The translations under genes were made by a program, and so were the position numbers. Positions 796-60,012 of a stretch of DNA of 64,000 nucleotides are shown here, piece by piece. Under the pieces are notes generated by a model, which did not search any database, had not been told where the DNA came from, and saw nothing but the letters and a program-made list of their open reading frames with translations. The stretch comes from an uncultured Candidatus Peribacteria bacterium (GTDB taxonomy: Bacteria > Patescibacteriota > Gracilibacteria > UBA1369 > 2-02-FULL-48-14): contig CAYHGP010000001.1 in the NCBI GenBank assembly GCA_964356195.1, forward strand, positions 43,513-107,512, written 5' to 3'. The first letter of the stretch is position 1. Each line of letters starts with the position of its first letter.

Positions 796-828
796 ATAGC
801 CCCCACCGCGGGGCTATTTATTTTTTTG
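796..828. terminator. Rho-independent terminator hairpin shared by convergent genes
   Basis: Perfect 8-bp stem ATAGCCCC (796-803) / GGGGCTAT (810-817) with a 6-nt loop, followed by TTATTTTTTTG. It lies between the ftsZ stop (745) and the stop of the minus-strand gene (818-820). Confidence 0.7.
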
Positions 829-2059
829 TATTTAATTCTGTTCGTAGCTCTGCTGTGAGGCGTTTGCATTCGTCGTAAGCTCGTTGCCCAATGGCTTTTA
901 CGTCGGTGGTGGTGAGGTCTTCGGCTGCAAATTGTTTCAAGTCAACCAAATTAAATCCGCCTTGTGTTTTCACTTGCTCTGCAATGACTCCCTGGTTTTC
1001 AGATGAAAGACGATCTACCACGTAAGGTTGCATGAGCCGAACAAACAAGGCGTCTGGAGCGTCTGGAGGGATTGCATCGTCCACTCGATCGAGCAAAGTC
1101 CATTTTCCAGTGCCTTCGGAGCCGGCCAGCTCGGCGCTATAGCCACAGAGTTCTTGAACTTGGCGTGGCGTGAAACAGTTTTCGATGTGCAAAGTACCCA
1201 TTCCGTAAATTTCTGCGTCCACGCGGCGTTGCATGCAGCCCTGGTGAAAGTTCACTTCTTTGTCACGGTCAACCAACAGGAGATGTGTAGCCTCGTGATG
1301 AAGGGTGTCCCGAGTCAGACTTGCCTCGAACTCCTCAGGGTTTTGTGTGCCCGGGTATCCCTTAAAGTCCTCGGCCAACCGTTTCGCCATTTGCGTTTGA
1401 TCGTTAACATAAAACTGCACCACTTGGCCGTTGGTGTCTCCTTCTGCAGTGGTTTGGGCAGGGAGCTCGCCGGTCATGTTTTCAACGATGTAAAGAACGG
1501 GGTATTTTGCCGCGCCGAGCTTATCGTGTATAGCAATTTGATCGGTTTGATCGAAGCGGTACTCGTTGATGATCCATACTTTGTCCTGCTGCCTAAGCTG
1601 AAGGTGAGCGCCGTCCGCGTGGAGGAATTCGTTCAAAAATCGTACTAGATCCAGAAGTTCCACCTTAGCTCCCTGTGGGAAACGTGACAGGTAATAAGGA
1701 TCGATTTTTTTGCCGCTGCGCTCGCTTAAGAATCGACAGACGTCGGTTACGAGCTCGTTGATGTGTTTTTGATCACGACGCTCTTCTTCCGAAAGCTTCG
1801 CATACTTCTGTTTGTAGGTTGTGGCAAAATGCCCTGAACTGCCTTTAGCGAGTTCTTCGAATTCCTCTTGGCTCATATCGAGGCCCGCCGGTTTCTCATA
1901 AACAACGCTTTCCCCAAGAAGCTGGGATTCAGGGTAGCCGGCGTCGATAACTGCAGCTGGGGCGGATGGAGCAGAAAGTTCTGCCTTTGCAGGCTCGGGC
2001 TTTTCAGCGTCCCCATCGAGGGCCAGGAGGCCGAGTAAAGCGAAGTTTCTAAGTTTCAT
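818..2059 (-). CDS. Hypothetical secreted protein with an HExxH motif (possible zinc metalloprotease, family not recognised)
   Basis: N-terminal hydrophobic signal-like segment MKLRNFALLGLLAL and a single HEATH (HExxH) motif in the C-terminal third. I recognise no other family signature. Confidence 0.5.
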   Translation of the reverse strand: MKLRNFALLGLLALDGDAEKPEPAKAELSAPSAPAAVIDAGYPESQLLGESVVYEKPAGLDMSQEEFEELAKGSSGHFATTYKQKYAKLSEEERRDQKHINELVTDVCRFLSERSGKKIDPYYLSRFPQGAKVELLDLVRFLNEFLHADGAHLQLRQQDKVWIINEYRFDQTDQIAIHDKLGAAKYPVLYIVENMTGELPAQTTAEGDTNGQVVQFYVNDQTQMAKRLAEDFKGYPGTQNPEEFEASLTRDTLHHEATHLLLVDRDKEVNFHQGCMQRRVDAEIYGMGTLHIENCFTPRQVQELCGYSAELAGSEGTGKWTLLDRVDDAIPPDAPDALFVRLMQPYVVDRLSSENQGVIAEQVKTQGGFNLVDLKQFAAEDLTTTDVKAIGQRAYDECKRLTAELRTELNTKK

Positions 2060-13900: not shown

Positions 13901-14243
13901 CGAACTCACGGAAGATTATGGAAAAATGCCGGAAGAAGTGGCGAATTTATTCCGCGTTCTTGAAATTAAGATGCTTGCAAAGAAGGCCGGAATTATTAAT
14001 GTGAAGGCGGAAAATGTGCACAGCACGGAGGATCGTCAAATTATTCTGCATATGTCCGGCAAGGTGCGTCCGGAAAATATTATGTCGCTGCTGGACTCCA
14101 ACTCACGATGGATTATTTCCGGCACCAAGCTGAAAATCTCCTTCAAGGATTTGGGCGTGAGCTGGGTGGAAGAGCTTAAAAAAGGCCTCGGCGCCCTCGG
14201 TAAAAAGCCTAAGAATGCCCCGGGGAGTGAGGTTGAGGTCTAG
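10977..14243 (+). CDS. mfd: Transcription-repair coupling factor
   Basis: 1088 aa. RNAP-interaction/CarD-like block (DFVVHSDHGIGIFLG), Walker A (GDVGFGKTEVAMRAA), DEEQRFGV, TATPIPRT, and a TRG-type C-terminal half. GTG start as given in the track. Confidence 0.92.
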   Translation: MKECKHLITLFPHGQNIQVIEQFSQQGYSSISGGGNYSSKAFLVADLMREVADLKQILWICSDHQHKENVARSLSLWGDVPVHNFEYEENAMRDRGIERKNKVRLMEFFSKVLEKESSQFFTITYKDLFRPYPSPKEIQKGVLRMKGKDAISPVSFFENLIRMGYEVSMDAYVEKGQYYRQGDLLTIWPVNSMFPVRVETSFDEIEKISVFDQVEKVDVSEVAALVIYPIAVPEDGAPLLSFFGRGDLVLDDEVEFPDGELEQFEQAMQQRNPESRYVEFRSFMEETPYHHHLHYLSVLKYYNPLDFVSDLREKMNNDWTVFLFTKHADEYLGILDDKNIPYMEYKNGGTPGRKGVVIFEIGKDDVFPEAFQNPGLKFAVITDRNTSGLGEAEKRMPERAKVYTEFLTGLKPNDFVVHSDHGIGIFLGLDKRTIDEVTREYLKIAYAENDKLFVPIDQADKVSKFVGSGDRPPKLTRLGSAEWTTIQSRVRKETEKIAQELLELYAERESARGYVFEPDTARLIQFEKNFTYEETPGQLRAILDVKRDMEGKKPMDRLVCGDVGFGKTEVAMRAAFKAVEGGKQVAVLTPITILADQHYKTFVKRMEGFDVRIEMLSRFRSPAEQKKILRALERGEIDIIIGTHRLLQADIKFKDLGLVIIDEEQRFGVKQKENLKTMRKEVHVLTMTATPIPRTLNISLHGLRDISTITTPPPGRLPIVTEVRRFSLGLIKSVVDKELDRGGQIYFLHNRVQTIEDMASKLRSLLPRARIVVTHGKLRPDDLEARILAFKNGEYDVLVSSTIIENGIDLPNANTLIVNSAERFGLSQLYQLRGRVGRSRTQAYSYFLYHMKRLPLDAKKRLKAIVEANELGAGFQIAMKDLEIRGAGDILGANQSGAIQVVGVSHFVRMLNQAVDSLKKGKKVEEGNLIPEVTIEIPLPAYVPDEYIVSSKEKISVYQKLAAADTLEYLTELKNELTEDYGKMPEEVANLFRVLEIKMLAKKAGIINVKAENVHSTEDRQIILHMSGKVRPENIMSLLDSNSRWIISGTKLKISFKDLGVSWVEELKKGLGALGKKPKNAPGSEVEV

Positions 14244-16021
14244 TGCCCTGAAGCTGCCGCATGAGCGCCTTCTTCGGCATGTTCTCCTCCGTGCGCTGCT
14301 TTATGTTTGACGGTGTGGTCAACGGAGTGCTCGACTGCCTCTTTCGCCACGTGGCTTGCTTCGGCCCTGGCCTTTACGGCTACGGTCTCAAGCTCCAGTC
14401 CCACGACCCTTAAAGCGGCGCTCACCTGTGTTCGGATAAGTTGGGCACTTGGGGCAACGCCCATTGCGAAGGCTTGGCCCTCTAGTCCGCGAACGAGGAG
14501 TTGCTTCAGGCCTTCGACGCCACCGGTTCTTTCTGAGATATAGGCACCCATTCTTTTGAGGAGTCCGGGGCCTTCCTTGGCCAAACCGTGCTCCACAGTG
14601 CCACCGATTGTTTTTTCAAACCCATGGACCAGCCCCGGTGTAAAGAAACACAGCATTCCTGTAAAATAAGCGGCCTCGGGGCCCCCAATTTTTTCTGCAG
14701 TGGCCACCGCTCCAGTAAATTTTCCAACTTCGATCGTAAAGTTGCCAAAGGCAAGAGCTCCTTTCTCCAGGCGGCCGGCTGTTTCAGCAGCTTTCAAGAC
14801 CTTCACGCCGGGCACGATCTTGGACAGGCGCGGGTAGGCCTCTATCAATTTTGCCACGCGAGCAGCCTGAGGGAGTTTAGCGACTGCTTGCCCAGCAACA
14901 AGCCCGGCAGCCGGAGCTGCTGCCATAACCGCCAACATGTCCAGGCGGAGAAATATGTCACCGACTTGAGTGAATTTTTGATAGGCTTTTTCGCCTGAGG
15001 TCATGGCATTCTTTTGCGCTTCGCTGGCGAACGTTGTTTCGGGGAATTCGTGAATCACCATTTGCAGGTAAGGCTCTGCTTCCTCTGCGCCAATTCGTCC
15101 ACGAAGCTCCATACCTTTTTCATAATAGTACTGAGCTTGATCCAACTCTGTGGGAGCACCACCTTGAATGACGGTACGTTCGAACAAGTGACCCTCCGGG
15201 CTTCCTCTAAACGTGGAGAAGTCCGGATTTCCACTTCTTTGCAAGCCGGCCCATGCCTCCGTCAGACTTTTTGGAGCCAGATTGTTTTTTTCACTTCCTC
15301 TCATGGCCTTAACAAGGACGAGCAAACCGCGTTCTGCCGACAGCTGAGTGGCCTGGTAGTCCGTATAAAGCTTTAGCTGCACCATCTCTTTTGTCTCCAA
15401 GCCGCCTTCCGTGAATGCTCCGCCGAGACTCGCTACGAGGTTGGAAGGTTCAATGGCATGTAAATAGCCGTCCAAGCCTTGTGACGACTCGCGCACGGTT
15501 TTAATCTTAGAATTCAGAGCGGTGTTTTCTCCTTGAATTTGCTCCAAAAAGCCGCGTACAACTTCCTGCTCAATGGCACTGGCGGTTTCCTGCTCTCTTA
15601 TAGCCGTTTGTTCCTTTAGTACCCTATCGGCGGTTGCCTCTCGCTCGAGCAAATACCCCGTGTATTCCAGGTCCGTTTTCATTGCCGTCAGATCGGCAAG
15701 AGTATCGTCGGCGAGAGCTCTTAGCATCTCCGCTTTTGAGGAGGATACGTCGGCTCGCATTTTTTCGAAACGCACTCCCATGTTGAGGAGTAGGAACTCG
15801 GGCGTGACCTTGTCTTGAGGAACCGGACCGGCCTCTTGTTTTTGAGAAAATTCTCCCGATACTTTTCCGTAAATCCCCAATGATTTGTATTTAGACACAA
15901 GTCCCCTGATTTCGGCTTCAGTGCTTGTGATTTTATCCTTGGTCTCCTTGCTCACGGTTAAGGTGCCGGCGTCTGCGGCCTCTACTAAGGCTCCAATGTT
16001 TGGACGTTCTTGGTTAGGCAT
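14240..16021 (-). CDS. Hypothetical protein (593 aa), Ala/Gly-rich hydrophobic C-terminal half with a His-rich tail
   Basis: Long ORF with an ATG at 16019-16021. No recognisable catalytic motifs. The C-terminal 29 aa contain 7 His, five of them spaced every fourth residue. Confidence 0.5.
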   Translation of the reverse strand: MPNQERPNIGALVEAADAGTLTVSKETKDKITSTEAEIRGLVSKYKSLGIYGKVSGEFSQKQEAGPVPQDKVTPEFLLLNMGVRFEKMRADVSSSKAEMLRALADDTLADLTAMKTDLEYTGYLLEREATADRVLKEQTAIREQETASAIEQEVVRGFLEQIQGENTALNSKIKTVRESSQGLDGYLHAIEPSNLVASLGGAFTEGGLETKEMVQLKLYTDYQATQLSAERGLLVLVKAMRGSEKNNLAPKSLTEAWAGLQRSGNPDFSTFRGSPEGHLFERTVIQGGAPTELDQAQYYYEKGMELRGRIGAEEAEPYLQMVIHEFPETTFASEAQKNAMTSGEKAYQKFTQVGDIFLRLDMLAVMAAAPAAGLVAGQAVAKLPQAARVAKLIEAYPRLSKIVPGVKVLKAAETAGRLEKGALAFGNFTIEVGKFTGAVATAEKIGGPEAAYFTGMLCFFTPGLVHGFEKTIGGTVEHGLAKEGPGLLKRMGAYISERTGGVEGLKQLLVRGLEGQAFAMGVAPSAQLIRTQVSAALRVVGLELETVAVKARAEASHVAKEAVEHSVDHTVKHKAAHGGEHAEEGAHAAASGH

Positions 16022-16433: not shown

Positions 16434-16872
16434 GGGGATGTACAGGCTTTGACAGAAAGTTTTAGAAGTCCGAAGCTGGCTTTCAGGTGGTTGTCTGGTC
16501 TCACCTTAATCCGTTCCAGACAAATTTAAGTGCTAATACACTTTCTAAGATTCAACAAGACGCTGCACGTCTTCGTGCAGCAGTTCCAATTGCATTCGCT
16601 CCGGCTTATGCATTTGCAGCCTAGCTGAATCTTGTATCGCCATTTAGTGCGATACCGTTCCTTAACCGACGCCTTGTGGGTTAAAAGAGCGTAATACTCG
16701 AGGCTTAGGGAAACTCCTGCTTGTGTTCCGGGAACGTACCGAAGTTTTGCACACACGGCGGCGCTGCTTTTGTCCATTTTTTATGGCGCCGGTGTAGACA
16801 AAGTGGACTATGAAAGTAGAAGGTTTCGCATTTCCTTTTTGGACGCGGGTTCGATTCCCGCCATCTCCACCA
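16434..16872 (+). ncRNA. ssrA: tmRNA (SsrA)
   Basis: The 5' GGGGATG pairs with the 3' CATCTCC-A-CCA, including the G3:U70 alanine identity pair. The 3' end has a T-arm, GCGGGTTCGATTCCCGC. An internal frame GCT AAT ... GCA TTT GCA GCC TAG (16532-16624) ends in YAFAA-stop. The resume-codon context TAA-GT-GCT mirrors the E. coli TAG-TC-GCA. Confidence 0.9.
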
Positions 16873-19602: not shown

Positions 19603-20571
19603 TTATTGGAGTTTACGAGAATGAGAAATAATGGATTCAAAAAGGGCGTCCACGAAAGCGGGCGAAAGGTTTTTTTGTTTCGCCAAACGTTTGTGAAAGT
19701 TTTTAAGCTTTGTTTCCCGCTTGGGGTCCACTACGGCTTTCCCGGTTTTCCTCTTCATCACCCCGATGGTTTTGCTCAAATCCATGCGCTCCGCAAGCAC
19801 TTCAAGCAGTTCCTCGTCGAGGGTTTCGATGCGTTTTCGCGCTTGCGAAAGAGTTTTAGGGTTTTCAATTTCACGGTTTAAGCCTCTTATTTTCTTGAGT
19901 AAGTTTTCACGTACTTGAAGGGTGTAGGGGTTGTAGCGCTGCATATCAAAAAACAGTTCCCACGTGTCATTGTTCACGACGCTGTCGATGCGGCGGAGCG
20001 CTTCATAGTCGGGCGTGTAAAGTTCCTGCTCGGTGAGTTTTAGTGCGGCCAGTCCGCGGCCCAGGAAATGCACCAAGGCTTGGGAGCGGGCCATTTGTTT
20101 ATCGTGGTCTTCGGGCGTGGTTTCGAAAATTTCCAGACCCATGGCGTGGAAGAGTTTTTTGAGTTCATTGAGCTGCGGCTTTTTTACGCGGAGAGGGCAG
20201 AGCACGATGCGTCTTCCCTTGAGTCCGAGCCGTGCCACGGAGTCGGGACCAAAAAGAGGGTGCGTGGCGATTAAATTTTGTTCCGGTGAAAAGACTCTTT
20301 GCATCACTCGAGCCGGGTGAACTTTCACCGAACAGGCATCCACGATCAGCGTTTTAGGCGAAACTTTTTTGGCGATGCTTTTGCACAAAGCCTCGAAGTG
20401 ACCAATGGGAACAAGTAAAAACAAAACATCCGTACGAAGAACTTCTTCCAGTGTGCCGAACTTGGAGCCGGTTTTTTTGGCTTGATCAAAAATCTTCACT
20501 TCGCCATGAGACTTGAGGCATGAGGCCCACAGTTTTCCGAAACGTCCGTAGCCGATGATTCCAAAAGTCAT
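19603..20571 (-). CDS. tyrA: Prephenate dehydrogenase fused to a C-terminal AroQ-type chorismate mutase
   Basis: The N-terminus has a Rossmann motif (IIGYGRFGK) and a TyrA-like body. The last ~85 aa (ARKRIETLDEELLEVLAERMDLSKTIGVMK...DPKRE...SRKLQ) match the AroQ chorismate mutase helical pattern. Confidence 0.8.
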   Translation of the reverse strand: MTFGIIGYGRFGKLWASCLKSHGEVKIFDQAKKTGSKFGTLEEVLRTDVLFLLVPIGHFEALCKSIAKKVSPKTLIVDACSVKVHPARVMQRVFSPEQNLIATHPLFGPDSVARLGLKGRRIVLCPLRVKKPQLNELKKLFHAMGLEIFETTPEDHDKQMARSQALVHFLGRGLAALKLTEQELYTPDYEALRRIDSVVNNDTWELFFDMQRYNPYTLQVRENLLKKIRGLNREIENPKTLSQARKRIETLDEELLEVLAERMDLSKTIGVMKRKTGKAVVDPKRETKLKNFHKRLAKQKNLSPAFVDALFESIISHSRKLQ

Positions 20572-24148: not shown

Positions 24149-24582
24149 AAATTGGTAACTAAGAAAGTGAGAGCTTCTTCATAAGACTTCAGTTGCTTGC
24201 CGTGAAAACTTTTTAAGCAAGCCGCTTCGGTCACGGAAATAGCGCGCCAAGGTTCTCGATTTTTAATGTCGGAAAGGTGAACTTCAACGCAAGGCAGGCC
24301 GCAGTCCACAAGGCCGTCGTGGAGGGCATAGCTGCTGTGGGTGAGGGCGCCGGGATTGATTAAAATTCCAACCGCTTCCGTGGATTTTTCTTGGATCCAG
24401 TCGATGAGAGCGCCTTCGTGATTCGATTGAAAACACTCGAGTTCGTGGCCTTGGTGTTCGGCGAGTTCCCGCATATTTTCTTCGAGTTCTGGAAGCGTCA
24501 TCGTCCCATAATGTGCAGGGTCGCGCTGCCCGAGACGATTCAAATTCGGCCCGTGGATGAGAAGGATTTTAGTCATGAGCAA
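24145..24582 (-). CDS. aroQ: Type II 3-dehydroquinate dehydratase
   Basis: ILLIHGPNLNRLGQRDPAHYG, INPGALTHSSYAL, VEVHLSDI. Confidence 0.93.
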   Translation of the reverse strand: MLMTKILLIHGPNLNRLGQRDPAHYGTMTLPELEENMRELAEHQGHELECFQSNHEGALIDWIQEKSTEAVGILINPGALTHSSYALHDGLVDCGLPCVEVHLSDIKNREPWRAISVTEAACLKSFHGKQLKSYEEALTFLVTNL

Positions 24583-25105
24583 GATTTAAACGAGTAAGAA
24601 CTTCTTCGGCTAAAGAATCAATAGTGCCTTCATTGTTAACACTGATCCCGGCCAACTCTTCAAAGACCGGCATCCGCTGTTCCCAGAGCTCCTGAAACTG
24701 GTCGAAAGCATCTTTTTCTTGAGAGAAAAAAGCCGGTTTTCCATTGATCATGATGCGTTCAAAAACAATGCTTCGTGGCGCCGTTACGTGAACAATTTGT
24801 TGTCCTTTGAGTAGGGCTTGATTGCGTTTCATGAGAGGAGTGCCGCCGCCCAGGGCTAAAATCAGCGGGGTGTTTTCGGTAAGAATTTCTTTGAGAGCAT
24901 CGCTTTCCAAGGCGCGGAAAAATTCTTCGCCGTGGTGCTGTAAAATTTCACGGCACGTCTGTTCTTTGCCGCATTGCGTTGTGTGCAAACGAATAATTTC
25001 TGAGTCTAAGTCGACAAAGGGCCGATTGAGTCGCAGGGACAGCCTTTCCCCGAGTAGTGTTTTGCCAGCGTGTTTGAATCCGATAATGATTAGATGTGAA
25101 GTCAT
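24569..25105 (-). CDS. aroK: Shikimate kinase
   Basis: Degenerate P-loop GFKHAGKT, FVDLD, LGGG. Length 178 aa. Confidence 0.85.
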   Translation of the reverse strand: MTSHLIIIGFKHAGKTLLGERLSLRLNRPFVDLDSEIIRLHTTQCGKEQTCREILQHHGEEFFRALESDALKEILTENTPLILALGGGTPLMKRNQALLKGQQIVHVTAPRSIVFERIMINGKPAFFSQEKDAFDQFQELWEQRMPVFEELAGISVNNEGTIDSLAEEVLTRLNLAHD

Positions 25106-26382
25106 GGTTTAGTTGTGAGTTGAAGTAAATGGTCCTCGAACAGGCAATAACTTTTCCCGAGGGCTTCTGCAGTATCAATAGTGGTTTCGTTTTTTGCCAG
25201 GAGTCCTGCCAAGGCCAGCGCCATAACGGTTCGATGATCGTTAAAACCACGTACTTTTGCTCCATGCAGTTGTGATGGGTGAACCACGAGTCCATCCGGC
25301 AACTCTTCGATATTTGCTCCCATGGCCCGTAAGCCTTCCGTCATAGAATGCAGTCGGTCGGTTTCTTTTACGCGAGCTTGGGGAACATTCAAAATGCGTG
25401 TGATTCCCTTGGCCTGCGTTCCAAGTACCGCAAGCGTCGGTACTAAATCCGGGACGTCATTCGCGTCGATGTCGATTCCCGTGAGAGGGGACTTGTGAAC
25501 ACGAATAAATTCTTTGGAAACGTCCACTTTTGCACTCATTGCTTCCAAAATGGAGAGCAAGCGGCGGTCGCCTTGAAGATCGTTTGGATCCAAGCCTTCT
25601 AGCTTCACGTCGCCAGTGAATAGAGCCCCCGCCGCCAAAAAAGTTGAAGCGGAAGAGTAGTCTCCGGGGATTTTGTAATCGATGGGTGAGTAGTGTTGGC
25701 CCGCCGGTAAATGGAAACGATCCATGTTGCCTTCTAGCACATGGCTAAATTGGATGCCTTGCGAACGGAGCCATTCCAAAGTGAGTTCCATGTAAGGGCG
25801 TTCGTTGAGATTTTCCACTTGCAGATCCAAGTCCTGCTCGGCGTAGATGCCGGACAGTAAAAGGGCGGAAATGAATTGAGACGTAAGACCGTTGACGCGG
25901 GCTCTGCCGCCCGTGAGAGGACCTTTTATTGTGATGGGCCAAGAAGCCGATTCCACGTGGCAGCCAAGGTCGGAAAGATTATTCAGCAAGTCCTGAAGCG
26001 GGCGGGTTTTCATTTGTTCACCTGTGTTGATTTGCATGGGGCGGGCGCCTTTTGTGAGCGCCAAAATGGGAAGGACGAAGCGTGTGGTGATGCCGGAATT
26101 TGCGGTGAAGAGGCTGTCTTTTATGGGGTTCAAGGGAACGCCCCGGCTTTCGATTTGCAGACAATCTTCATGACAAGTTGCAGGTTTGATTTGCGCGCCT
26201 AAATTTCGGCATACCTCGATGGCCGTCGAAACATCTTCCGAGTCAGGAAGAAAATGCAAAGTGGAGGTGCCCTTCGCCATTGTTGCAAGAAGCAGCGCCC
26301 TGATGCTCTGGGATTTGGATCCCGGAATGCGCAGGGTGCCGTTCAGTGTGGTGTTGGGAAAAACGTGTAGGTCCATAAACAA
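25102..26382 (-). CDS. aroA: 3-phosphoshikimate 1-carboxyvinyltransferase (EPSP synthase)
   Basis: IPGSKSQSIRALLLA, NSGITTRF, DHRTVMALALAGL. Confidence 0.94.
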   Translation of the reverse strand: MFMDLHVFPNTTLNGTLRIPGSKSQSIRALLLATMAKGTSTLHFLPDSEDVSTAIEVCRNLGAQIKPATCHEDCLQIESRGVPLNPIKDSLFTANSGITTRFVLPILALTKGARPMQINTGEQMKTRPLQDLLNNLSDLGCHVESASWPITIKGPLTGGRARVNGLTSQFISALLLSGIYAEQDLDLQVENLNERPYMELTLEWLRSQGIQFSHVLEGNMDRFHLPAGQHYSPIDYKIPGDYSSASTFLAAGALFTGDVKLEGLDPNDLQGDRRLLSILEAMSAKVDVSKEFIRVHKSPLTGIDIDANDVPDLVPTLAVLGTQAKGITRILNVPQARVKETDRLHSMTEGLRAMGANIEELPDGLVVHPSQLHGAKVRGFNDHRTVMALALAGLLAKNETTIDTAEALGKSYCLFEDHLLQLTTKP

Positions 26383-26397
26383 AAAGTCCCCGCGAGT

Positions 26398-26442
26398 GCG
26401 AGGCCTAGGGGTAAAAAATTACACACTTCTTAGAGGCCTCGC
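26398..26442. promoter_or_regulatory. Inverted repeat in the divergent aroA / U32 intergenic region
   Basis: GCGAGGCCT (26398-26406) and its perfect complement AGGCCTCGC (26434-26442), separated by 27 nt and lying 16-60 nt upstream of the aroA start codon. Confidence 0.35.
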
Positions 26443-26589
26443 TGTTGGGCGAAGAAATAAAAGCCGCTAAAAAACCAAGTGTGTACCATAAAGTGAAGTA
26501 ATACTACGCCTAGTTTAAGGGGGCTGTCAATTTCTTTACATCAAGGCGGTTTTTGGCTAAAAGAGAGTCACACAGTTTACAGCACTTTT

Positions 26590-27837
26590 ATGCAAAAAAT
26601 TGAAATCATGGCTCCGGTAGGTTCGTTTGAGGCCTTTGCAGCGGCGCTGAATGCCGGATGTGACAGTGTCTACTTTGGGGTGGAGCAGCTCAATATGCGG
26701 GCGAGGGCTTCGCACAATTTTACTCTGGAAGAACTTAAGGAAGTGGCTCAAACCTGCCGTGAACACGGGGTTCGTTCTTACCTCACCATGAACACCTTGC
26801 TGTATCAGCATGACCTTATCTTGATGCGCAAGATTTTGGATGCGGCGAAGGAGGCGGACATTTCAGCGATTATTATTCAGGATATTGCAGCGATTCAGTA
26901 CGCGCGTTCCATCGGGCTGTCCATTCATGCGTCCACGCAACTTTCCATCTCCAATTACGAGGCCGTGAAGTTCTACGCGCAGTTTGCGGATACTATTGTT
27001 TTAGCCCGTGAAGTGGACATGGACATGATGCGAGAGATTTGTGAGAACATCGAAAAAGATCAGCTCAAAGGACCTGCCGGAAACTTGGTTCGCATTGAGG
27101 TTTTTGTGCATGGCGCGCTGTGCATCGCGCAAAGCGGTCGTTGCCAAATGAGTTTGATCACCAATAATACTTCGGCTCAGCGTGGGGCTTGCCTGCAGGA
27201 ATGTCGGAAAAAATATAAAGTGATTGACGAGGAAACCGGCACGGAAATGGTGATTGATAATGAGTATGTACTTAGTCCGACGGACCTCTGTTGCTTGCCC
27301 TTTTTGGATAAGCTCGCTGCCACCGGCGTGTCTGTCTTTAAGATTGAAGGTCGCGGGAAAAGCGCCGATTATGTGAGCAAAGTGGTGCAGATGTATCGCG
27401 AGGCGCGGGACGCCATTATGGAAAAAACTTTCACGCAAGAAAAGATTGATCATTGGATGGAGGAGCTGAAAAGTGTGTACAATCGGGGGTTTTCCGAGGG
27501 TTATTACTTGGGACGAAAGCTTCCGGAGTGGAGCGGGTTTTCCGGAAATAAATCAACGGATGAAAAGATTTATGTGGGTGAGGTGAGCCACTATTTCCCA
27601 AAGGCGAAAGCGGCGGAATTGAATACTTTGGCGCATGAAATCAAAAAAGGAGATCGATTTGTGATTATTGGGAAAACGACTGGAGCGGTGTATGGCAGTG
27701 TTGAGAATATGTTGAAAGAGAATGTGAGCGTTGAAACGTCCGGCAAGCAATGTCTAGTCACGATTCCATTGGCGGAAACGGTTCGCGAGCATGACAAGAT
27801 TTATCTTCTTAAATCCCGCGCTCTCGATGTCCTTTAA
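26590..27837 (+). CDS. Peptidase U32 family protein (TrhP/RlhA/YrrO-type candidate RNA hydroxylase)
   Basis: Exact match to the U32 signature E-x-F-x2-G-[SA]-[LIVM]-C-x4-G-x-C-x-[LIVM]-S (EVFVHGALCIAQSGRCQMS). The N-terminus IEIMAPVGSFEAFAAALNAGCDSVYFG is typical of the family. Confidence 0.9.
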   Translation: MQKIEIMAPVGSFEAFAAALNAGCDSVYFGVEQLNMRARASHNFTLEELKEVAQTCREHGVRSYLTMNTLLYQHDLILMRKILDAAKEADISAIIIQDIAAIQYARSIGLSIHASTQLSISNYEAVKFYAQFADTIVLAREVDMDMMREICENIEKDQLKGPAGNLVRIEVFVHGALCIAQSGRCQMSLITNNTSAQRGACLQECRKKYKVIDEETGTEMVIDNEYVLSPTDLCCLPFLDKLAATGVSVFKIEGRGKSADYVSKVVQMYREARDAIMEKTFTQEKIDHWMEELKSVYNRGFSEGYYLGRKLPEWSGFSGNKSTDEKIYVGEVSHYFPKAKAAELNTLAHEIKKGDRFVIIGKTTGAVYGSVENMLKENVSVETSGKQCLVTIPLAETVREHDKIYLLKSRALDVL

Positions 27838-28066
27838 AATTGTTCATTTCCGTAATGGCTGTATTGGGTGCAACTCCTGCGTGAATATCGCTCCGCAGTC
27901 TTGGATGATGGACGAAAAAGAAGGGAAAGCGGTGCTGGTGGGAGGTGAAAAAAAAAGAGACGTGTATGTGGCGGAAGCTTTTGACTGTGATTTGGAGGAC
28001 AATAAACGCGCGGCGGCTGCGTGTCCGATGCGCATCATTCAGATCAACGGGGGAGGTGCGGAGTGA
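27827..28066 (+). CDS. Small single-cluster ferredoxin
   Basis: CIGCNSCVNIAP ... ACPMRII (C-x2-C-x2-C ... C-P). The ATG at 27827 overlaps the U32 stop codon (27835-27837). Confidence 0.75.
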   Translation: MSFKIVHFRNGCIGCNSCVNIAPQSWMMDEKEGKAVLVGGEKKRDVYVAEAFDCDLEDNKRAAAACPMRIIQINGGGAE

Positions 28067-28114: not shown

Positions 28115-29857
28115 GTGTCTACTTCTTTGAGTCCATTTCCGGAGGGGAGCGTCCATGAGGAGGAGCTTGATGATGTGGAACTTCTTCGTCACGTTAATCG
28201 AGGAGATCCGACTGGGAAAGAACGATTGGAAGCGCTCCTTCCTGAGCTGACACCGGATGAAATTGCCTTGCGGTGTGATGAGCTTGGGTTTTTACGTTAC
28301 CAAGGTGATCAAGACCCCAATTCTCTCTATGAGCGGTTTTGGTTTTTGCGTCCAGAGGATTTTCATCGTTTGGATGTCGATGCTATGGATCTCGGAGATT
28401 TTTTTGAGGAAACCTATTACAAGCCAAGTGTTGCCGCCATACGCATGGTGCGTGCTGTCGTTGCATTGGACGTCAATACCGTGTTGGAAGAAAAACCACC
28501 CCTCGTCACTCATGAGGACTATTTACGTTACTTTGAGACCTTTCATTTAGACGTGCTCAGGGAGTTGATACGTAATTTGCATGAAATAGAGGGGAGTCAG
28601 GGGTGCGATGGTCCTTGCCGCGCTATTTGTGGAGCAGGTGCTAAGAGAAGGGTGACAGGAGGGGATATGCCCTTTGAGACGATGCAGTGGCTTTCTCAAC
28701 ACTTTGGAGAAGAACTTTGTGAAGCAAATCCTGTCCTCTATTCCGCGAGTGATCTCGCGGACTACGGGTACAATAGTAAAAATGGGGCTGATGTCATTGA
28801 ATTATTTGAAAAAACTACCGATAGGTATCCTTACGTCTCAACGGCCTATCGTCTCGACAAAAAAGCGATAGACTTTCTTTTTGACTTAGTCGTTCGTCGC
28901 GGACGACGCGTTGATCGTATCTCTCGTCTTGTTACGGGGAAAAAGGGAGAAGATTTAGAGGTCTTGCTCGATAAACTGAGGCAGCGAGCAGCCGAAGAAG
29001 GGAATGTTTTAGATGACGAAGCTATTGGGAGTATTTCTCGTGCCTTTTTGCAAGGAGATAAGGGTGGAATGAATACGATGATGGGCAATGCCGTTCGGCC
29101 TAGTACACCAGAAAGTACTATGACGAAGGAGCACGTTGCGTGTTCTCACGGGGTTGTCCTGAGGGCAGGGAAGGGCTTTTTTGGTTTGGTTGTTCGTCCG
29201 GCTTCCAAGATTTTTCCCGATGGCAGGGCAATGTTTCCAATTCGTCCTGACGCAAGTGGGCAGGTTCGTTTTCCGCAGCTTCTTCATACGGATCTCACTC
29301 TTGTCCCCTTCTCTGGAGTACGAAAGGTAGTGTTGGGGCCAAAATGGACCATTATGGACAATGAATCCGGTGGAATTTCGGAAAAAGAAACAAGAAGCTC
29401 GCAAGAACAAGCCTTGATAGATGTGAGCCTCTATAAGCAACGTTATCTTACGCTCGAAAGTTTCTTTCTTACCGTTGACTCACAAACAGGAAGGGCCGTT
29501 CGTTTATCGGAAGTCCTCAGGAGGGGTTTGTCCGGACGAGAAAATATACCGCCGGAAGACCGCAGGGAAACTCTGACGAGAGTCAGAAACGGGATAGCTT
29601 TTATTAAGCGTTGCCTTCATTATAGTCGAGAGGGGGCTCAGGAGCTCTATGAGCGATACGCTGACAACAAGAACGTGACTTTGGAAGTTGCTCAATACTA
29701 TGCGGCCACTTTGAATGAAGTGTTCGACGAGCTTGAGTCCCTTTATAGCTTGTTAGGGGCTTTAAGTGGGGCTGACGGAGTGGATGAAGTGGCGAGTTTG
29801 CAAGAAGAACTCCTACAAGTATTAGGATCCTTGCAAGAAGAGAAGACAACGCTGTAA
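28115..29857 (+). CDS. Hypothetical protein (580 aa) with a Cx3Cx3C cysteine triad
   Basis: Long ORF with a GTG start 49 nt after the ferredoxin stop. CDGPCRAIC at 28604-28630. Family not recognised. Confidence 0.5.
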   Translation: MSTSLSPFPEGSVHEEELDDVELLRHVNRGDPTGKERLEALLPELTPDEIALRCDELGFLRYQGDQDPNSLYERFWFLRPEDFHRLDVDAMDLGDFFEETYYKPSVAAIRMVRAVVALDVNTVLEEKPPLVTHEDYLRYFETFHLDVLRELIRNLHEIEGSQGCDGPCRAICGAGAKRRVTGGDMPFETMQWLSQHFGEELCEANPVLYSASDLADYGYNSKNGADVIELFEKTTDRYPYVSTAYRLDKKAIDFLFDLVVRRGRRVDRISRLVTGKKGEDLEVLLDKLRQRAAEEGNVLDDEAIGSISRAFLQGDKGGMNTMMGNAVRPSTPESTMTKEHVACSHGVVLRAGKGFFGLVVRPASKIFPDGRAMFPIRPDASGQVRFPQLLHTDLTLVPFSGVRKVVLGPKWTIMDNESGGISEKETRSSQEQALIDVSLYKQRYLTLESFFLTVDSQTGRAVRLSEVLRRGLSGRENIPPEDRRETLTRVRNGIAFIKRCLHYSREGAQELYERYADNKNVTLEVAQYYAATLNEVFDELESLYSLLGALSGADGVDEVASLQEELLQVLGSLQEEKTTL

Positions 29858-32383: not shown

Positions 32384-33838
32384 ATGTATAAAAACTTATT
32401 TGTAGCTCTGCTGGTACTTCTTGTACCTGCATCAATAGCCTTAGCGTCCATCGCTGATATCGAAGTGTCCGTGCTTGACGCAGACGCTGTTGAATCATCG
32501 GATGAAGGGGAAGACTCTGATGATTCAGGTAACGATGAAGGTGAGGATGAAGATGAAGATACTGACTCAGACAGCGAAGATGGCGACGATTCCGATGAGG
32601 ATGAAGAGGAGGATTCTGATATGGAAAATGCAGCTGATAAGATTGAAGACGCTGGGGAAGAAATTGCCGATGCAGAGGAAACCATTGTTGAGAAAGAAGC
32701 TGAAGGTAAGGATGTCTCAGATGCACTTCTTAGACTTGAAGGTGCACGTGAACTTCTAGCTGATGCACAAACTGAATTTGATGCGGGAAATTATGAAGAA
32801 GCAGAATATCTTGCTAAAGAAGCAAAACATGAAGCGATGTACGCCAAAGGTAAAGATATCCACTCAAACAGTGAAGAATCTGAACTTGGTGAAGACTTTG
32901 GAGAATGTATTGCCGAAGCAGTGCTCTCAGATGAAAGTGATGCTGAAGAGTTTGATGAATGTTTCGAAGACTTTGAAGAAGAAATAGCAGATTTTGTTGA
33001 AGAATTATTGTCTGAAGAGGACCAAGCGGCAAACACTGAACTTGACGAAGCCCTTACTTCCCTTGCAGAGACCGTTGAATCTGAACTAAGCCAGCTACTT
33101 CTTGCTCTCGCTGAATTCAATGTCAGCGGAGTAGATGAAGATAAAGTCATTGCGGATATTGAAAGTATCGTTGAATCAGACGATGATCTTGAAACTCAAG
33201 TTTCAGAACTAGAGGATAAGATGGATGAAATCAAAGATGAGTCTACTGCAAACAAGTTCGAAGATGATGTAATCCCATTTAGAGATACTGATGATGAAGA
33301 ATGGTTCTTCAACTTTGTTGATCAGATGGATTCAGAGGCTTGTATCTCAGGATTCAAGGACGAAGCAGGAAATGAACTGGGCGAATTCCGCCCTTCAAAT
33401 GAAGTGCTGTTTGGAGAAAGCATGAAGTTTGTACTGCAATGTATTCTCGATGAAGATCCTGAAGATATTGCTGACGGTGATTTCTGGGCTCGAGGATATG
33501 CGCTTAAGTTTCAAGAAGATTTCTCTGATCTACTTAGCGCAGACCTTCTAGGTCGAGTCGAAAATGCTCTCGTAGATGATGCGGAATACACTTCAGAAGT
33601 TACTCGCGGTGAACTTATTCAACTGATCGTTGATGCACTTGATTTGGATGTTTCAGAAGCAAGCGAAGCTCCTTTCAGTGATGTTGCTCTAGATCATGCA
33701 AATGTAAATGCGATCAACTATGCTCTCAGTAAGGGCGTAATCTCAGGTGATGAGGAAACAAGTACTTTCCGTCCTGATGAAGTTCCAAACCGTGCAGAAG
33801 TTGCAAAGATCATTATCCTTGCTAAACAGTTGTTCTAA
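32384..33838 (+). CDS. Secreted hyper-acidic protein with C-terminal SLH-like domains
   Basis: Signal peptide MYKNLFVALLVLLVPASIALA. D/E/S run in aa 31-79. C-terminal SLH-like blocks (FRDTDDEEWFFNFV...ISGFKD...FRP; FSDVALDHANVNAINYALSKGVISGD...FRPDEVPNRAEVAKII). Confidence 0.65.
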   Translation: MYKNLFVALLVLLVPASIALASIADIEVSVLDADAVESSDEGEDSDDSGNDEGEDEDEDTDSDSEDGDDSDEDEEEDSDMENAADKIEDAGEEIADAEETIVEKEAEGKDVSDALLRLEGARELLADAQTEFDAGNYEEAEYLAKEAKHEAMYAKGKDIHSNSEESELGEDFGECIAEAVLSDESDAEEFDECFEDFEEEIADFVEELLSEEDQAANTELDEALTSLAETVESELSQLLLALAEFNVSGVDEDKVIADIESIVESDDDLETQVSELEDKMDEIKDESTANKFEDDVIPFRDTDDEEWFFNFVDQMDSEACISGFKDEAGNELGEFRPSNEVLFGESMKFVLQCILDEDPEDIADGDFWARGYALKFQEDFSDLLSADLLGRVENALVDDAEYTSEVTRGELIQLIVDALDLDVSEASEAPFSDVALDHANVNAINYALSKGVISGDEETSTFRPDEVPNRAEVAKIIILAKQLF

Positions 33839-34012: not shown

Positions 34013-36379
34013 ATGAAAATTGCATTGATTTGTGGGGGGCCATCGTTGGAGCGAGGGATTTCGCTCAACTCGGCGCGTAGTGTTTTAGACCATTTGGAAG
34101 GCGATGGGATTGAAGTGGTGCCGATTTATTTTGATCATAAAAAGCGTCCTTATCATATTTTGAGCTCGCAACTTTATTCCAATACGCCTTCCGATTTTGA
34201 TTTTAAGCTTCAAGAAACGGCTAAGGCTCTGAGTCCAACCGGACTTAAGAAGTTGCTGAAAAGTGTGGACCTGGCCTTTCCCGTGATGCACGGACCTTTT
34301 GGGGAAGACGGAGGAATTCAGCGTATTCTTGAGCGCGCCAAGGTGCCTTACATCGGCCCTGGGATGGAGGCTTGTAAACGTTGTTTCGATAAATTTACAG
34401 CCAATGAATTCATCCGAAAGAATGGATTTTTCACGCTCCCCTCCATCGTTTTGAAAATTCACCAAGGGGGGCACAAGTCAACGATTGCTGCGTTTTTCAA
34501 GAAACATAAAATCAAGAGAGCCATTGTGAAGCCTGCAACGGGGGGATCCAGCATTGGAGTTTCTTCAGTGACTACTGCCACCGAAGCCCTTGAAAAAGTA
34601 AAAAAACTTTTTGCCAAAAGGATAGATACCCGTGTGGTGGTGGAGCCCTTTTGTGAAGGGATTGAGTTTACCGTCATCCTTTTGCAAAATCGTTTTGGAA
34701 TGCCGGTGGCTATTCTCCCGACGGAAATTGAGACGGACTACACGGAGCATCAAATCTTTGATTATCGGAAAAAATATTTGGCGAGCCGAGCGGTTCGTTA
34801 CCACTGTCCTCCTCGTTTTGATAACGCCACCATTGAACGCATCCAGGTTCAAGCTGAGCAACTGTTTACGCTGTTTGGGATGCGAGATTTTACGCGGTTT
34901 GACGGCTGGCTGCTTCCCGATGGAAACATTTGGTTTTCAGATTTCAATCCCATTAGTGGCATGGAGCAGAATAGCTTCCTCTTCCAACAAACGGCGCGCA
35001 TTGGGTTCAGTCATCGCGACCTTCTTCGTTTTGTGGTGAAGAACGCGGCAGCGCGGTATGGGCTGAAAGTTCCTGAAATCACGAAAGAAATCGAGGAGAA
35101 GAAAAAGCCGGTGAACGTTTTGTTTGGAGGTAGCACTTCCGAGAGGCAGGTTTCGCTTATGAGTGGAACCAATGCTTGGCTCAAGCTTCGTCGCTCAAAA
35201 AAGTACGCTCCCAAGCCCTTTCTTTTGGACTTGAATGGGAAGGTGTGGCCGCTTCCCTATGCACTAACTTTGAATCATACGGTGGAGGAAGTTTTGGAAA
35301 ACTGCGAAGGGGCAGAAGCCGGTGAAAAGCGCTTGCAGTTTTTAGAGGAAAAAATACGATTGCGGTTGTCGGCTGGAGAGGAAGAGCTGAGCGAATCTTT
35401 TTTCATCCCGAAGCCGTTGAGCTTGGAGACTTTCATTCGTGACAGTAAGTTTGTGCTTTTGGGTTTACATGGAGGCATTGGCGAAGACGGGACTTTGCAA
35501 GCAATGCTGCAAAAACAAGGAGTGAAATTCAACGGTCCCGGGGCAGAGGCGTCTCGCATTTGTATGGATAAGTTTGAGACTGGAAAACGTGTGCAAGGTT
35601 TGGAAAAATGGGGAGTGTACACGGCACCCAAAAAGTCCGTATTGCTCACGGCATTTAAAAACTTCAAGCCCGTGGATTTTGATAATTACTTCAAGAATTT
35701 GCAGGCCGAGCTGGATTCGCGAACTTTTATTGTGAAGCCGCAGGACGAGGGCTGCTCCTCCGGAATTGTTCGCCTGTTTAACGCTCGGGATTTTGCGAAG
35801 TACATTGCTTTGGCGCTCAAGGGAGTCGCCTTCATCCCTAAAGAAACTTTTAAAAACCAGACGCAAATGGTGGATATGCCTTTGGTCCCCATGAAGCATC
35901 TTTTGATTGAGCAGTTTATTGAAACGGACGCGGTTTGCGTGAAAGGAAATCAGCTCAAGTGGCGACGAAAAAAAGGATGGGTGGAAGTGACGGTGGGTGT
36001 TTTAGAAGAAAATGGAAAGTGCCATGCGCTGAGTCCCAGTCTTACCGTTTCCGAAGGCGAAGTGCTTTCTGTGGAAGAAAAATTTCAAGGGGGAACCGGG
36101 GTGAATATGACTCCGCCGCCGGAAAAATTTGTGAAACCGACCGTGCTTGCGCGGGCCAAAAAAGCGGTTGAGAAAATTGCGGAAACGCTTGGGATTGAAG
36201 GGTATTGCCGTATGGATGCCTTCCTGAACATCGACAACGGGGATATCATTTTAATCGAAGTGAATACTTTGCCGGCGCTCACGCCGTCCACGGTTCTTTT
36301 CCATCAAGCGCTTGCTGAAAAGACGCCGATTTACCCCAAGCGGCTCTTGGAAATGCTGATCGAGAATAAAGGCTATTAA
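34013..36379 (+). CDS. ddl: Tandem fusion of two D-alanine--D-alanine ligase-like ATP-grasp modules
   Basis: Module 1 (aa 1-~350): IALICGGPSLERGISLNSA, HGPFGEDGGIQ, VKPATGGSSIG, RFDGWL...SDFNPISG. Module 2 (aa ~365-788): VNVLFGGSTSERQVSLMSG, HGGIGEDGTLQ, VKPQDEGCSSGI, CRMDAFL...LIEVNTLPALT. Confidence 0.85.
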   Translation: MKIALICGGPSLERGISLNSARSVLDHLEGDGIEVVPIYFDHKKRPYHILSSQLYSNTPSDFDFKLQETAKALSPTGLKKLLKSVDLAFPVMHGPFGEDGGIQRILERAKVPYIGPGMEACKRCFDKFTANEFIRKNGFFTLPSIVLKIHQGGHKSTIAAFFKKHKIKRAIVKPATGGSSIGVSSVTTATEALEKVKKLFAKRIDTRVVVEPFCEGIEFTVILLQNRFGMPVAILPTEIETDYTEHQIFDYRKKYLASRAVRYHCPPRFDNATIERIQVQAEQLFTLFGMRDFTRFDGWLLPDGNIWFSDFNPISGMEQNSFLFQQTARIGFSHRDLLRFVVKNAAARYGLKVPEITKEIEEKKKPVNVLFGGSTSERQVSLMSGTNAWLKLRRSKKYAPKPFLLDLNGKVWPLPYALTLNHTVEEVLENCEGAEAGEKRLQFLEEKIRLRLSAGEEELSESFFIPKPLSLETFIRDSKFVLLGLHGGIGEDGTLQAMLQKQGVKFNGPGAEASRICMDKFETGKRVQGLEKWGVYTAPKKSVLLTAFKNFKPVDFDNYFKNLQAELDSRTFIVKPQDEGCSSGIVRLFNARDFAKYIALALKGVAFIPKETFKNQTQMVDMPLVPMKHLLIEQFIETDAVCVKGNQLKWRRKKGWVEVTVGVLEENGKCHALSPSLTVSEGEVLSVEEKFQGGTGVNMTPPPEKFVKPTVLARAKKAVEKIAETLGIEGYCRMDAFLNIDNGDIILIEVNTLPALTPSTVLFHQALAEKTPIYPKRLLEMLIENKGY

Positions 36380-40396: not shown

Positions 40397-40622
40397 GTTG
40401 TATACCTTCCAATCTTGTCCTTACTGCGAAAAAGTTCGCAGAGTTTTTATGTCCGACAAGGTGTCTTATGAGGAAGTGACTGCTGAACGGGGAACCCCTG
40501 GCGCAGAAGAAGTGGAGCGACTGGGAGGCAAACTCCAAGTTCCATTTTTGGTCGATACGGAAGCCGGAATTTCCATGTATGAATCGGACGATATTATTAA
40601 CTATGTACAAAAAAATTCTTAA
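40389..40622 (+). CDS. Glutaredoxin-family small thiol protein
   Basis: 77 aa with a CPYC active site near the N-terminus and VPFLVD (cis-Pro loop region). Confidence 0.8.
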   Translation: MLKLYTFQSCPYCEKVRRVFMSDKVSYEEVTAERGTPGAEEVERLGGKLQVPFLVDTEAGISMYESDDIINYVQKNS

Positions 40623-41163
40623 AAAAATTGAAGAAGAGAACGTCGCCAAAGACGTTTGGATTGTGGGTCCTGAAACGGGCCATATGTTGCATTGGCTGGT
40701 TCGTGTTTTAGAACCGGAGACCGTGCTTGAAATTGGAACCTCCGTGGGTTACAGCGCACTTTGGATCGCTTCTGCTTTACATCACAATGGGAAGGGAAAG
40801 CTCTGGACGGTGGAGTCGCATGATGAACGTTTTGAGCGCGCAAAAGAAAATATCGCCGAGTCCGGTCTTGGGGATCGTATTGTTCAAGTGAAAGGACACG
40901 CCCCTGAAATTTTCGAGAGCAACTCAGGGATTCCGGAAATCATCGATGTTGTTTTTTTTGATGCCACCAAGCAAGAGCATCAGTCCTACTTCGACGCTAT
41001 TTTTCCACGGATGCGTTCCGGCGGCATGATTTTGGTGGACAATGTAAAGTCGCATCGCTTCGGACCGATGCAGGAATTTATTGAAAATGCTCATGCCAAC
41101 AAAGGCTTGAAGGTGGTCGAAATTCCGGTTGGAGACGGGCTGCTTATAGCACGCGTTGTTTAG
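40603..41163 (+). CDS. Class I SAM-dependent O-methyltransferase, family 3 (caffeoyl-CoA OMT / YrrM-TrmR-like)
   Basis: LEIGTSVGYSALWIA, VFFDATKQEHQSYFD, GGMILVDNV. ATG at 40603 (alternative 40579) overlaps the glutaredoxin gene end. Confidence 0.8.
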   Translation: MYKKILKKIEEENVAKDVWIVGPETGHMLHWLVRVLEPETVLEIGTSVGYSALWIASALHHNGKGKLWTVESHDERFERAKENIAESGLGDRIVQVKGHAPEIFESNSGIPEIIDVVFFDATKQEHQSYFDAIFPRMRSGGMILVDNVKSHRFGPMQEFIENAHANKGLKVVEIPVGDGLLIARVV

Positions 41164-59922: not shown

Positions 59923-60012
59923 TGGCGGAGGGGGGGGGATTCGAACTCCCGAAACCCTTTCGAGTTTGCACCCTTTCCAAGGGTGTGCACTAGGCCACTA
60001 TGCGACCCCTCC
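59923..60012 (-). tRNA. tRNA-Ser (anticodon GGA), CCA encoded
   Basis: The reverse complement is GGAGGGG-T-CGCATAGTGGCCTAGTGCA-C-ACCC-TTGGAAA-GGGT..., with a long variable arm, T-loop TTCGAAT, CCCCTCC-G-CCA, and a 7-bp acceptor stem. Confidence 0.9.

Follow-up and report, generated by a model that had tools for sequence, protein, structure and literature searches.

Proteins of the U32 family are established as O2-independent hydroxylation factors that depend genetically on prephenate, and one of them, Escherichia coli TrhP (YegQ), needs a ferredoxin as well. It was reportedly the genes surrounding yegQ homologues that led to this ferredoxin, YfhL. TrhP, RlhA (YdcP) and UbiU/UbiV all insert oxygen without O2, and TrhP is known from published work to be prephenate-dependent and to bind a [4Fe-4S] cluster. 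Here we describe a U32 gene and an overlapping ferredoxin gene in a 64,000-nucleotide stretch of DNA (the window) from an uncultured Candidatus Peribacteria bacterium (contig CAYHGP010000001.1 of assembly GCA_964356195.1, positions 43,513 to 107,512). The same pair recurs across related genomes, where it is repeatedly linked to enzymes that make or use prephenate.

Prephenate has been demonstrated as the oxygen donor in one system only, that of UbiU/UbiV, which take part in the O2-independent hydroxylation of ubiquinone (PMC10990095). Their reaction requires a two-electron oxidation of the substrate, for which the electron acceptor is still missing (PMC10990095). For the U32 hydroxylases in general, an in-vitro assay, proof that the enzymes use prephenate directly and the identity of the electron acceptor are all still sought (PMC10990095, PMC11574389). 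The Fe-S hydroxylases of the family typically carry a CX6CX15CX3C motif that is essential for them (PMC11574389), and Bacillus subtilis YrrO (TrhP1) combines a U32 motif with a C-terminal motif (PMC6599085).

A U32 gene that overlaps a ferredoxin gene

The pair and the spacer in front of it occupy the following positions of the window.

26383-26589, unstranded: 207-bp spacer from which aroA and the U32 gene diverge, read from the sequence
26590-27837, plus strand: U32-family Fe-S protein gene, 415 amino acids (aa), Pfam PF01136
27827-28066, plus strand: ferredoxin with a predicted single [4Fe-4S] cluster, 79 aa (C12-x2-C15-x2-C18 ... C67-P), Pfam Fer4_15/Fer4_13
27827-27837, plus strand: 11-nt overlap of the ferredoxin start with the U32 stop, ATGTCCTTTAA, read from the sequence

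The original prediction, made from the letters of this DNA, had recognized a U32 signature in the 415-aa protein, placed the ferredoxin ATG at 27827 within the last codons of the U32 gene and noted the 207-bp divergent region between the pair and aroA; all three readings were upheld. Residues 170-188 of the U32 protein, EVFVHGALCIAQSGRCQMS, fit by regular expression what we take to be the PROSITE U32 pattern, and PF01136 (Peptidase_U32), the sole Pfam domain above cut-off, matches with 230 bits against a gathering cut-off of 22.4. The cysteine motif, C178-X6-C185-X15-C201-X3-C205, has exactly the CX6CX15CX3C spacing by regular expression. Its four cysteines are invariant in an alignment of 18 U32 orthologues, and the spacing is identical in E. 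coli TrhP and RlhA and different in UbiU and UbiV. By analogy, we predict that the protein binds an Fe-S cluster through C178, C185, C201 and C205.

The AlphaFold2 (AF2) model of the protein, with an overall predicted local distance difference test score (pLDDT) of 78, has a TIM (beta/alpha) barrel followed by a C-terminal beta-barrel at approximately residues 324-409. The C-terminal barrel is modeled with pLDDT >90; the cysteine loop is poorly predicted. Foldseek with this model matched numerous generic TIM barrels and, along with them, the U32 structure 5D88 (E 5.7e-6, template-modeling (TM) score on the target 0.58); its matches also include barrels that resemble domain II of translation factors. 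In a sequence search of the PDB, 4HE5 was matched only weakly (E 0.53). Among close orthologues, the C-terminal family Peptidase_U32_C (PF16325) reaches 31.3 bits in P0109 (cut-off 28.2) and 23 bits in P0096. An hhalign comparison of the profile of the window protein's clade with E. coli TrhP gave an alignment over the full length, the C-terminal domain included, with 29% identity and a probability of 99.9. No signal peptide was seen in the N-terminus, MQKIEIMAPVGSFEAF, on inspection by eye only, and isoelectric points were uninformative as a hint of RNA binding.

The ferredoxin scores 36.1 bits for Fer4_15 and 35.8 bits for Fer4_13, both above cut-off. The four cysteines predicted to be cluster ligands (CxxCxxC ... 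CP) are kept in at least 90% of 49 aligned ferredoxin orthologues, among which the fifth cysteine of the window protein, C54, is variable. The start codon (27827-27829) lies inside the 3' end of the U32 gene, whose TAA stop is at 27835-27837. An alternative in-frame ATG is present upstream at 27791; we assign the start to 27827 because the alignment with 48 orthologues favors it. We propose an operon of two genes, U32 and ferredoxin, that are coupled in translation. Directly after the ferredoxin gene lies an open reading frame (ORF) of 580 aa (28115-29857, plus strand), which has no Pfam match and for which no counterpart was detected in L001, the closest relative.

Conservation of the pair

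One genome per GTDB species was scanned, which gave 53 related species-level loci; the linkage counts that follow rest on the DNA around the U32 gene in these loci, many of them on short contigs. The closest U32 proteins, 55-90% identical to that of the window, belong to Candidatus Peregrinibacteria/Peribacteria, which NCBI files partly under Gracilibacteria. By tblastn, a ferredoxin gene stands immediately 3' of the U32 gene in 46 loci, and L043 and L046 have a more diverged 79-aa ferredoxin at the same position. Every Peregrinibacteria locus with downstream DNA (48/48) has a ferredoxin 3' of the U32 gene; three further ones end at a contig edge before that position. The overlap seen in the window, which the original prediction singled out, is a property of the whole clade: in 44 of the 48 loci the ferredoxin start reaches 1-26 nt into the U32 gene, most commonly 14 nt, and a gap of 1-49 nt separates the two genes in the remaining four. 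A census of neighbors within 8 kb found the ferredoxin to be the only conserved one, with no other gene in more than eight loci. The pairing of U32 with ferredoxin exceeds chance.

An overlapping Fer4_15 ferredoxin gene is present as well in a U32 lineage of 46% identity (P0127; L063 5001-6519), and the pairing may reach beyond the sampled Peregrinibacteria loci. One homologue, P0049, filed under 'Helicobacteraceae bacterium CG1_02_36_14', was considered as evidence for the subfamily PepU32#2 and rejected. Its locus (L057 8001-9480) holds the same Peregrinibacteria-type U32-ferredoxin pair, 66% identical, among S-layer homology (SLH)-domain and hypothetical genes, and these neighbors resemble those of the candidate phyla radiation (CPR). 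The assignment of this contig to Helicobacteraceae is probably a binning error. A few kilobases from the pair, approximately five loci carry ferritin genes (for example L057 5396-5818 and L040 4620-5135) and seven carry heavy-metal P-type ATPases; this proximity may have to do with the homeostasis of iron or metals, or may be due to chance.

Linkage of the pair to prephenate enzymes

All ORFs of the loci were searched for chorismate mutase (CM), prephenate dehydrogenase (TyrA) and prephenate dehydratase (PheA). In 13 of the 51 loci, the window included, the pair is linked to an enzyme of prephenate synthesis or consumption, and this count is a lower bound, since many contigs are short. The linked arrangements comprise at least seven layouts on at least eight separate branches of the U32 tree. 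Those in the relatives include the following.

L002, L005, L007 and L036: U32, ferredoxin and CM, in this order, as three overlapping genes; the CM has 74-90 aa and its gene begins 8-14 nt ahead of the stop of the ferredoxin gene
L009 (11238-11771) and L010 (8812-9351): ferredoxin-CM fusion in a single ORF of 177 and 179 aa
L027: CM convergent with the ferredoxin gene, their 3' ends overlapping
L020: TyrA and PheA as divergent neighbors
L044: TyrA-PheA fusion of 597 aa on the same strand, ending 11 nt upstream of the U32 gene
L003: CM and a convergent aro cluster, 1.3 kb off on the other side of the pair

The CMs of the four three-gene loci score 60-76 bits for Pfam CM_2 (cut-off 27), and those linked to the pair overall score 53-76 bits. 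The ferredoxin-CM fusion is invisible in protein databases because the public gene calls (P0313 and P0314, of 150 and 152 aa) take an internal Met as the start and thereby lose the CxxCxxC part. These omitted 30 codons are evidently translated, as the changes between L009 and L010 are mostly synonymous (six, with one non-synonymous and conservative change). A search for additional fusions of this kind returned two protein clusters only, both with truncated gene calls.

By our estimate, one given gene adjoins another by chance in approximately 1 in 1000 cases per genome. Set against this figure, the repeated adjacency and the protein fusion are strong evidence for a functional link between the U32-ferredoxin pair and the prephenate enzymes. 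The original prediction had read a module of three components, namely prephenate synthesis, the U32 enzyme and an electron carrier, from the layout of the aro genes in the window. The link among the three holds, and it does so by way of the varied arrangements in the relatives and not by way of that layout. In the literature that we searched, we found no description of a clade-wide, translationally coupled pairing of U32 with a ferredoxin of this different type, nor of a chorismate mutase that overlaps, or is fused to, the gene of a ferredoxin partnering U32.

Comparison with described U32 systems

In a neighbor-joining (NJ) tree of 299 columns and 100 bootstraps, in which deep support is weak, the clade of the window protein forms part of a large group of proteins of 400-430 aa from uncultured organisms, and none of the four E. 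coli paralogues falls in with it. A Victivallaceae protein, 44% identical, is an outgroup of the clade.

The window protein is like E. coli TrhP in its apparent build, a U32 barrel followed by a C-terminal beta-barrel, and in the CX6CX15CX3C spacing. Prephenate and a small ferredoxin are common to both systems: TrhP depends on them, and the window U32 is linked to them through its genes. The two proteins differ in sequence (26-29% identity) and fall in separate clades, and TrhP has an insertion of ~40 aa after the cysteine motif. The genes differ in arrangement, as trhP and yfhL lie far apart whereas the U32 and ferredoxin genes of the window overlap. E. coli YfhL matches dicluster families (Fer4_7), and the window ferredoxin is a single-cluster Fer4_15 protein. 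Judged from the sequences, the U32-ferredoxin partnership is an analogue of that between TrhP and YfhL and was not inherited from it.

B. subtilis YrrO is similar in size to the window protein, and the window shares with the yrrMNO genes an O-methyltransferase of the TrmR/YrrM kind.

40579-41163, plus strand: candidate family-3 O-methyltransferase, 194 aa, TrmR/YrrM-like (5-hydroxyuridine, ho5U, to 5-methoxyuridine, mo5U), PF01596 73 bits

The Asp/Asp/Asn metal ligands align in this protein, and its PDB matches include YrrM (5ZW3, 65.7 bits) and a tRNA 5-hydroxyuridine methyltransferase (8K1F, 56.9 bits). Unlike yrrM, the methyltransferase gene is 12.5 kb downstream of the U32 gene and is not linked to it elsewhere: none of the related loci has an O-methyltransferase within 10 kb of U32. 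Unlike the YrrO/YrrN (TrhP1/TrhP2) pair, the U32 gene has no second U32 gene adjoining it in any of the 51 loci. UbiU/UbiV, the partners of UbiT, are U32 Fe-S proteins too; they differ in cysteine spacing, and the window locus has neither a heterodimer partner nor UbiT nearby. Across the 51 loci, no second U32 gene or SCP2 gene was found beside U32.

The placement of the clade in a named U32 subfamily was approached in several ways. The table of Sakai 2019, which follows the Kimura/Sakai scheme of 12 subfamilies, holds four Peregrinibacteria U32 entries, two labeled TrhP and two PepU32#4, which are not confirmed as orthologues of the window protein, and a Lentisphaera U32 labeled PepU32#4. A homologue search with the low-GC orthologue of L029 returned none of the GW2011 Peregrinibacteria proteins of the Sakai 2019 table. 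The representatives of the 20 nearest clusters formed at 50% identity bear only names of uncultured lineages (Riflebacteria, Methanobrevibacter, Aenigmarchaeota) and no subfamily label, their gene context held no yrrMNO-type operon that could serve as one, and PDB sequence searches for a subfamily name gave nothing useful. To our knowledge, the only function known for PepU32#4 is a disputed collagenase activity.

Proposed mechanism and substrate

The mechanism that we propose draws on published work on UbiU/V, TrhP and RlhA (PMC10990095, PMC6599085, PMC5727448). Chorismate mutase would supply prephenate, through a fusion of TyrA with CM that is the predicted prephenate source in the window and through the CM that overlaps, or is fused to, the ferredoxin in relatives. 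The U32 protein would hold a [4Fe-4S] cluster on its four invariant cysteines and would carry out, independently of O2, a two-electron oxidation of a carbon in the aromatic ring of the substrate. The intermediate would be quenched by the hydroxyl that is freed as prephenate decarboxylates to phenylpyruvate, and the two electrons would exit via the U32 cluster to the ferredoxin, which would thereby take the role of the acceptor still missing for UbiU/V (PMC10990095). The phenylpyruvate by-product could be transaminated to phenylalanine. We infer the use of prephenate, the direction of electron flow and the substrate; the gene evidence fits all three roles of prephenate supply, hydroxylase and electron carrier.

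We consider it probable that the pair belongs to a prephenate-linked, ferredoxin-coupled U32 hydroxylase module. As the substrate of this module we suggest, tentatively, U34 of tRNA. It is the most likely candidate because the domain layout is TrhP-like, published work reports few components of the respiratory chain in Peribacteria, most being absent, and the window encodes a TrmR/YrrM-like methyltransferase. We prefer this RNA target to one of the RlhA or Ubi type because the protein is without DUF3656 and has no UbiV or UbiT partner. As a whole, a U32 hydroxylase with its own ferredoxin, fed with prephenate and with tRNA U34 as its leading candidate substrate, is the best explanation of the locus, and we hold it with somewhat more belief than doubt.

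Several results weigh against this explanation. The original prediction had associated the U32 protein with the known RNA hydroxylases, but the NJ tree puts it in neither the TrhP nor the RlhA clade of E. coli, its BLASTP identities to RlhA, UbiU and TrhP are nearly equal, and it scores below every NCBIfam cut-off: 183 vs 534 bits for TrhP (NF011996), 157 vs 440 for UbiU and 53 vs 275 for UbiV. The window protein itself yields no PF16325 match, although E values as high as 10 were admitted. The ferredoxin, which had been compared with YfhL, is without detectable similarity to the E. coli protein, as BLASTP gives no alignment of the two. A typical low-potential [4Fe-4S] ferredoxin is, moreover, an odd oxidant for an aromatic ring. 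None of the loci links the pair to a gene for TrmR, CmoA or CmoB. Outside the clade, the nearest U32 relatives belong to Riflebacteria, Victivallaceae, Pseudobdellovibrionaceae and two other lineages, and they have neither a ferredoxin nor a chorismate mutase beside U32; 38 of the 51 loci show no prephenate enzyme in the available DNA, many of these contigs being short. The adjacency to the divergent aro cluster, on which the original prediction leaned, is shared by just two relatives, L001 and L053, which match the U32 protein of the window at 88-89% identity. Lastly, the case for an RNA substrate consists of the TrhP-like domain layout; from this layout, RNA hydroxylation as originally predicted is plausible, and the RNA itself is the conjectural part of that claim.

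A bolder version, which strikes us as doubtful, is that U32, ferredoxin and chorismate mutase act as one physical unit in Peregrinibacteria. Chorismate mutase would then make prephenate at the enzyme, U32 would take oxygen from this prephenate and the ferredoxin would remove the electrons. Were this so, the ferredoxin-CM fusion and the U32-ferredoxin-CM operons would be a natural minimal system, with which prephenate-dependent hydroxylation could be reconstituted in vitro for the first time, and chorismate mutase in some reduced genomes may persist mainly for the U32 reaction. The clade offers independent genomic evidence for both of the missing partners, a dedicated ferredoxin and a chorismate mutase, and its two or three small proteins are a defined set for reconstitution. 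The proposed module is kept in a CPR lineage poor in biosynthetic genes, which suggests that hydroxylation matters under anoxic, host-dependent conditions.

Alternative explanations

The same chemistry could be directed at another target, either rRNA, as by RlhA at 5-hydroxycytidine 2501 (ho5C2501) of 23S rRNA, or another RNA or DNA base; we judge this unlikely. RlhA has the U32 domain with the exact CX6CX15CX3C spacing, is marginally the closest E. coli paralogue by BLASTP (29% identity and a top score of 138 bits, with UbiU at 28% and TrhP at 26%) and stands nearer than TrhP in the NJ tree, and the absence of a TrmR or CmoAB gene linked to the pair in any locus agrees with such a target. RlhA is, however, a protein of 653 aa with DUF3656 whereas the window protein has 415 aa and is without DUF3656, and the C-terminal domain of the latter aligns with that of TrhP.

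A similarly low probability attaches to an enzyme for small molecules, which would act on prephenate itself (for example in a ferredoxin-dependent oxidative decarboxylation) or on another aromatic metabolite, so that the linkage to CM, TyrA and PheA would be ordinary pathway clustering. The recurrent partners besides the ferredoxin are indeed only enzymes for which prephenate is product or substrate, with no link to any RNA-related gene, and UbiU/V show that U32 enzymes can use small lipophilic aromatics. Yet in the window, and in loci such as L044, prephenate already has a standard dehydrogenase and dehydratase, which leaves no gap to fill. A UbiV-like second subunit and UbiT are absent from the vicinity, Peribacteria reportedly do without most of the respiratory chain, and the domain layout is TrhP-like.

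Less credible still is that the aro adjacency in the window is a coincidence and that U32 and ferredoxin form a self-contained pair. This would account for the presence of that particular adjacency in the two closest relatives only, and for the unrelated genes among which the pair is found in most loci. It has to contend with the CM, TyrA or PheA that stands beside, or is fused to, the pair in nine further loci, and with L003, which adds a chorismate mutase 1.3 kb away together with a convergent aro cluster. Each of these layouts is independent of the others, one of them is a protein fusion, and the chance estimate given above applies to each genome.

It is highly improbable that the protein is a genuine peptidase (collagenase), whether secreted or cellular. 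That reading is suggested by the family name, the database names 'collagenase' and 'U32 family peptidase', the PrtC/HP0169 reports and the two Peregrinibacteria entries of Sakai 2019 under PepU32#4 (the subfamily in which Kimura 2017 placed the collagenase PrtC). A protease, however, needs neither an invariant four-cysteine motif nor an obligatory ferredoxin partner nor links to chorismate mutase, and the N-terminus shows no signal peptide by eye.

The aromatic cluster and the rest of the window

The complete chorismate/prephenate cluster that the original prediction placed head-to-head with the pair is present: all seven shikimate steps are encoded, together with CM, TyrA, PheA and an aminotransferase. 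Only aroC is on the plus strand.

25102-26382, minus strand: aroA, 5-enolpyruvylshikimate-3-phosphate (EPSP) synthase, TIGR01356 367.6 bits vs cut-off 287
24569-25105, minus strand: aroK, shikimate kinase, PF01202 104 bits
24145-24582, minus strand: aroQ, type II dehydroquinase, PF01220 169 bits
23378-24148, minus strand: aroE, shikimate dehydrogenase, PF08501 and PF01488
22325-23368, minus strand: DAHP synthase, type I, PF00793 172 bits
21276-22328, minus strand: aroB, dehydroquinate synthase, PF01761 and PF24621
20568-21272, minus strand: prephenate dehydratase, PF00800 43.2 bits vs cut-off 25.2
19603-20571, minus strand: prephenate dehydrogenase (TyrA)-chorismate mutase fusion, PF01817 73.1 bits, PF02153 62.5 bits
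18434-19597, minus strand: class-I aminotransferase (candidate aromatic/aspartate aminotransferase), PF00155 229.9 bits
17296-18447, plus strand: aroC, chorismate synthase, PF01264 392 bits

The CM_2 domain of the TyrA-CM fusion is C-terminal (residues 245-322). The prephenate dehydratase consists of the catalytic domain only, with no match to an ACT domain in Pfam. As annotated, the cluster is a full phenylalanine/tyrosine pathway and goes beyond a prephenate supply line. The suggestion that the hydroxylation module is the reason why this compact genome keeps the shikimate pathway is not supported: the module is not needed to explain the retention because the cluster, with TyrA, PheA and the aminotransferase, suffices for the synthesis of phenylalanine and tyrosine. 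Our search of the literature yielded no paper on the shikimate genes of Peregrinibacteria. In the divergent spacer, a scan for promoters and terminators did no better than on shuffled sequence; the single sigma-70-like match (minus strand, 26530-26501) is within the count expected there.

Elsewhere, the window carries housekeeping genes (ftsZ, def, a release factor (RF) gene, the RNase J gene, dnaN, mfd, the transfer-messenger RNA (tmRNA) gene, pheST, topA and a class A penicillin-binding protein (PBP) gene). The tmRNA gene (16434-16872, plus strand, Rfam 113 bits) lies between a 593-aa ORF and aroC, and tRNA-Ser(GGA) and tRNA-Thr(GGU) are at 59923-60012 and 63504-63578; the tRNA and Rfam scans of the window returned no element that bears on the U32 gene. 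Large ORFs with no Pfam match are found at 51441-54188 (plus strand, 915 aa), 14240-16021 (minus strand, 593 aa) and 818-2059 (minus strand, 413 aa). A 788-aa protein (34013-36379, plus strand) has the N- and C-terminal domains of D-Ala-D-Ala ligase, each matched in two stretches, and looks like a tandem duplication within one polypeptide. SLH-domain proteins are encoded at 32384-33838 and 61112-63244, both on the plus strand. The N-terminal half of the first is very acidic and rich in Asp, Glu and Ser, and the ORF antisense to it is an artefact of this composition.

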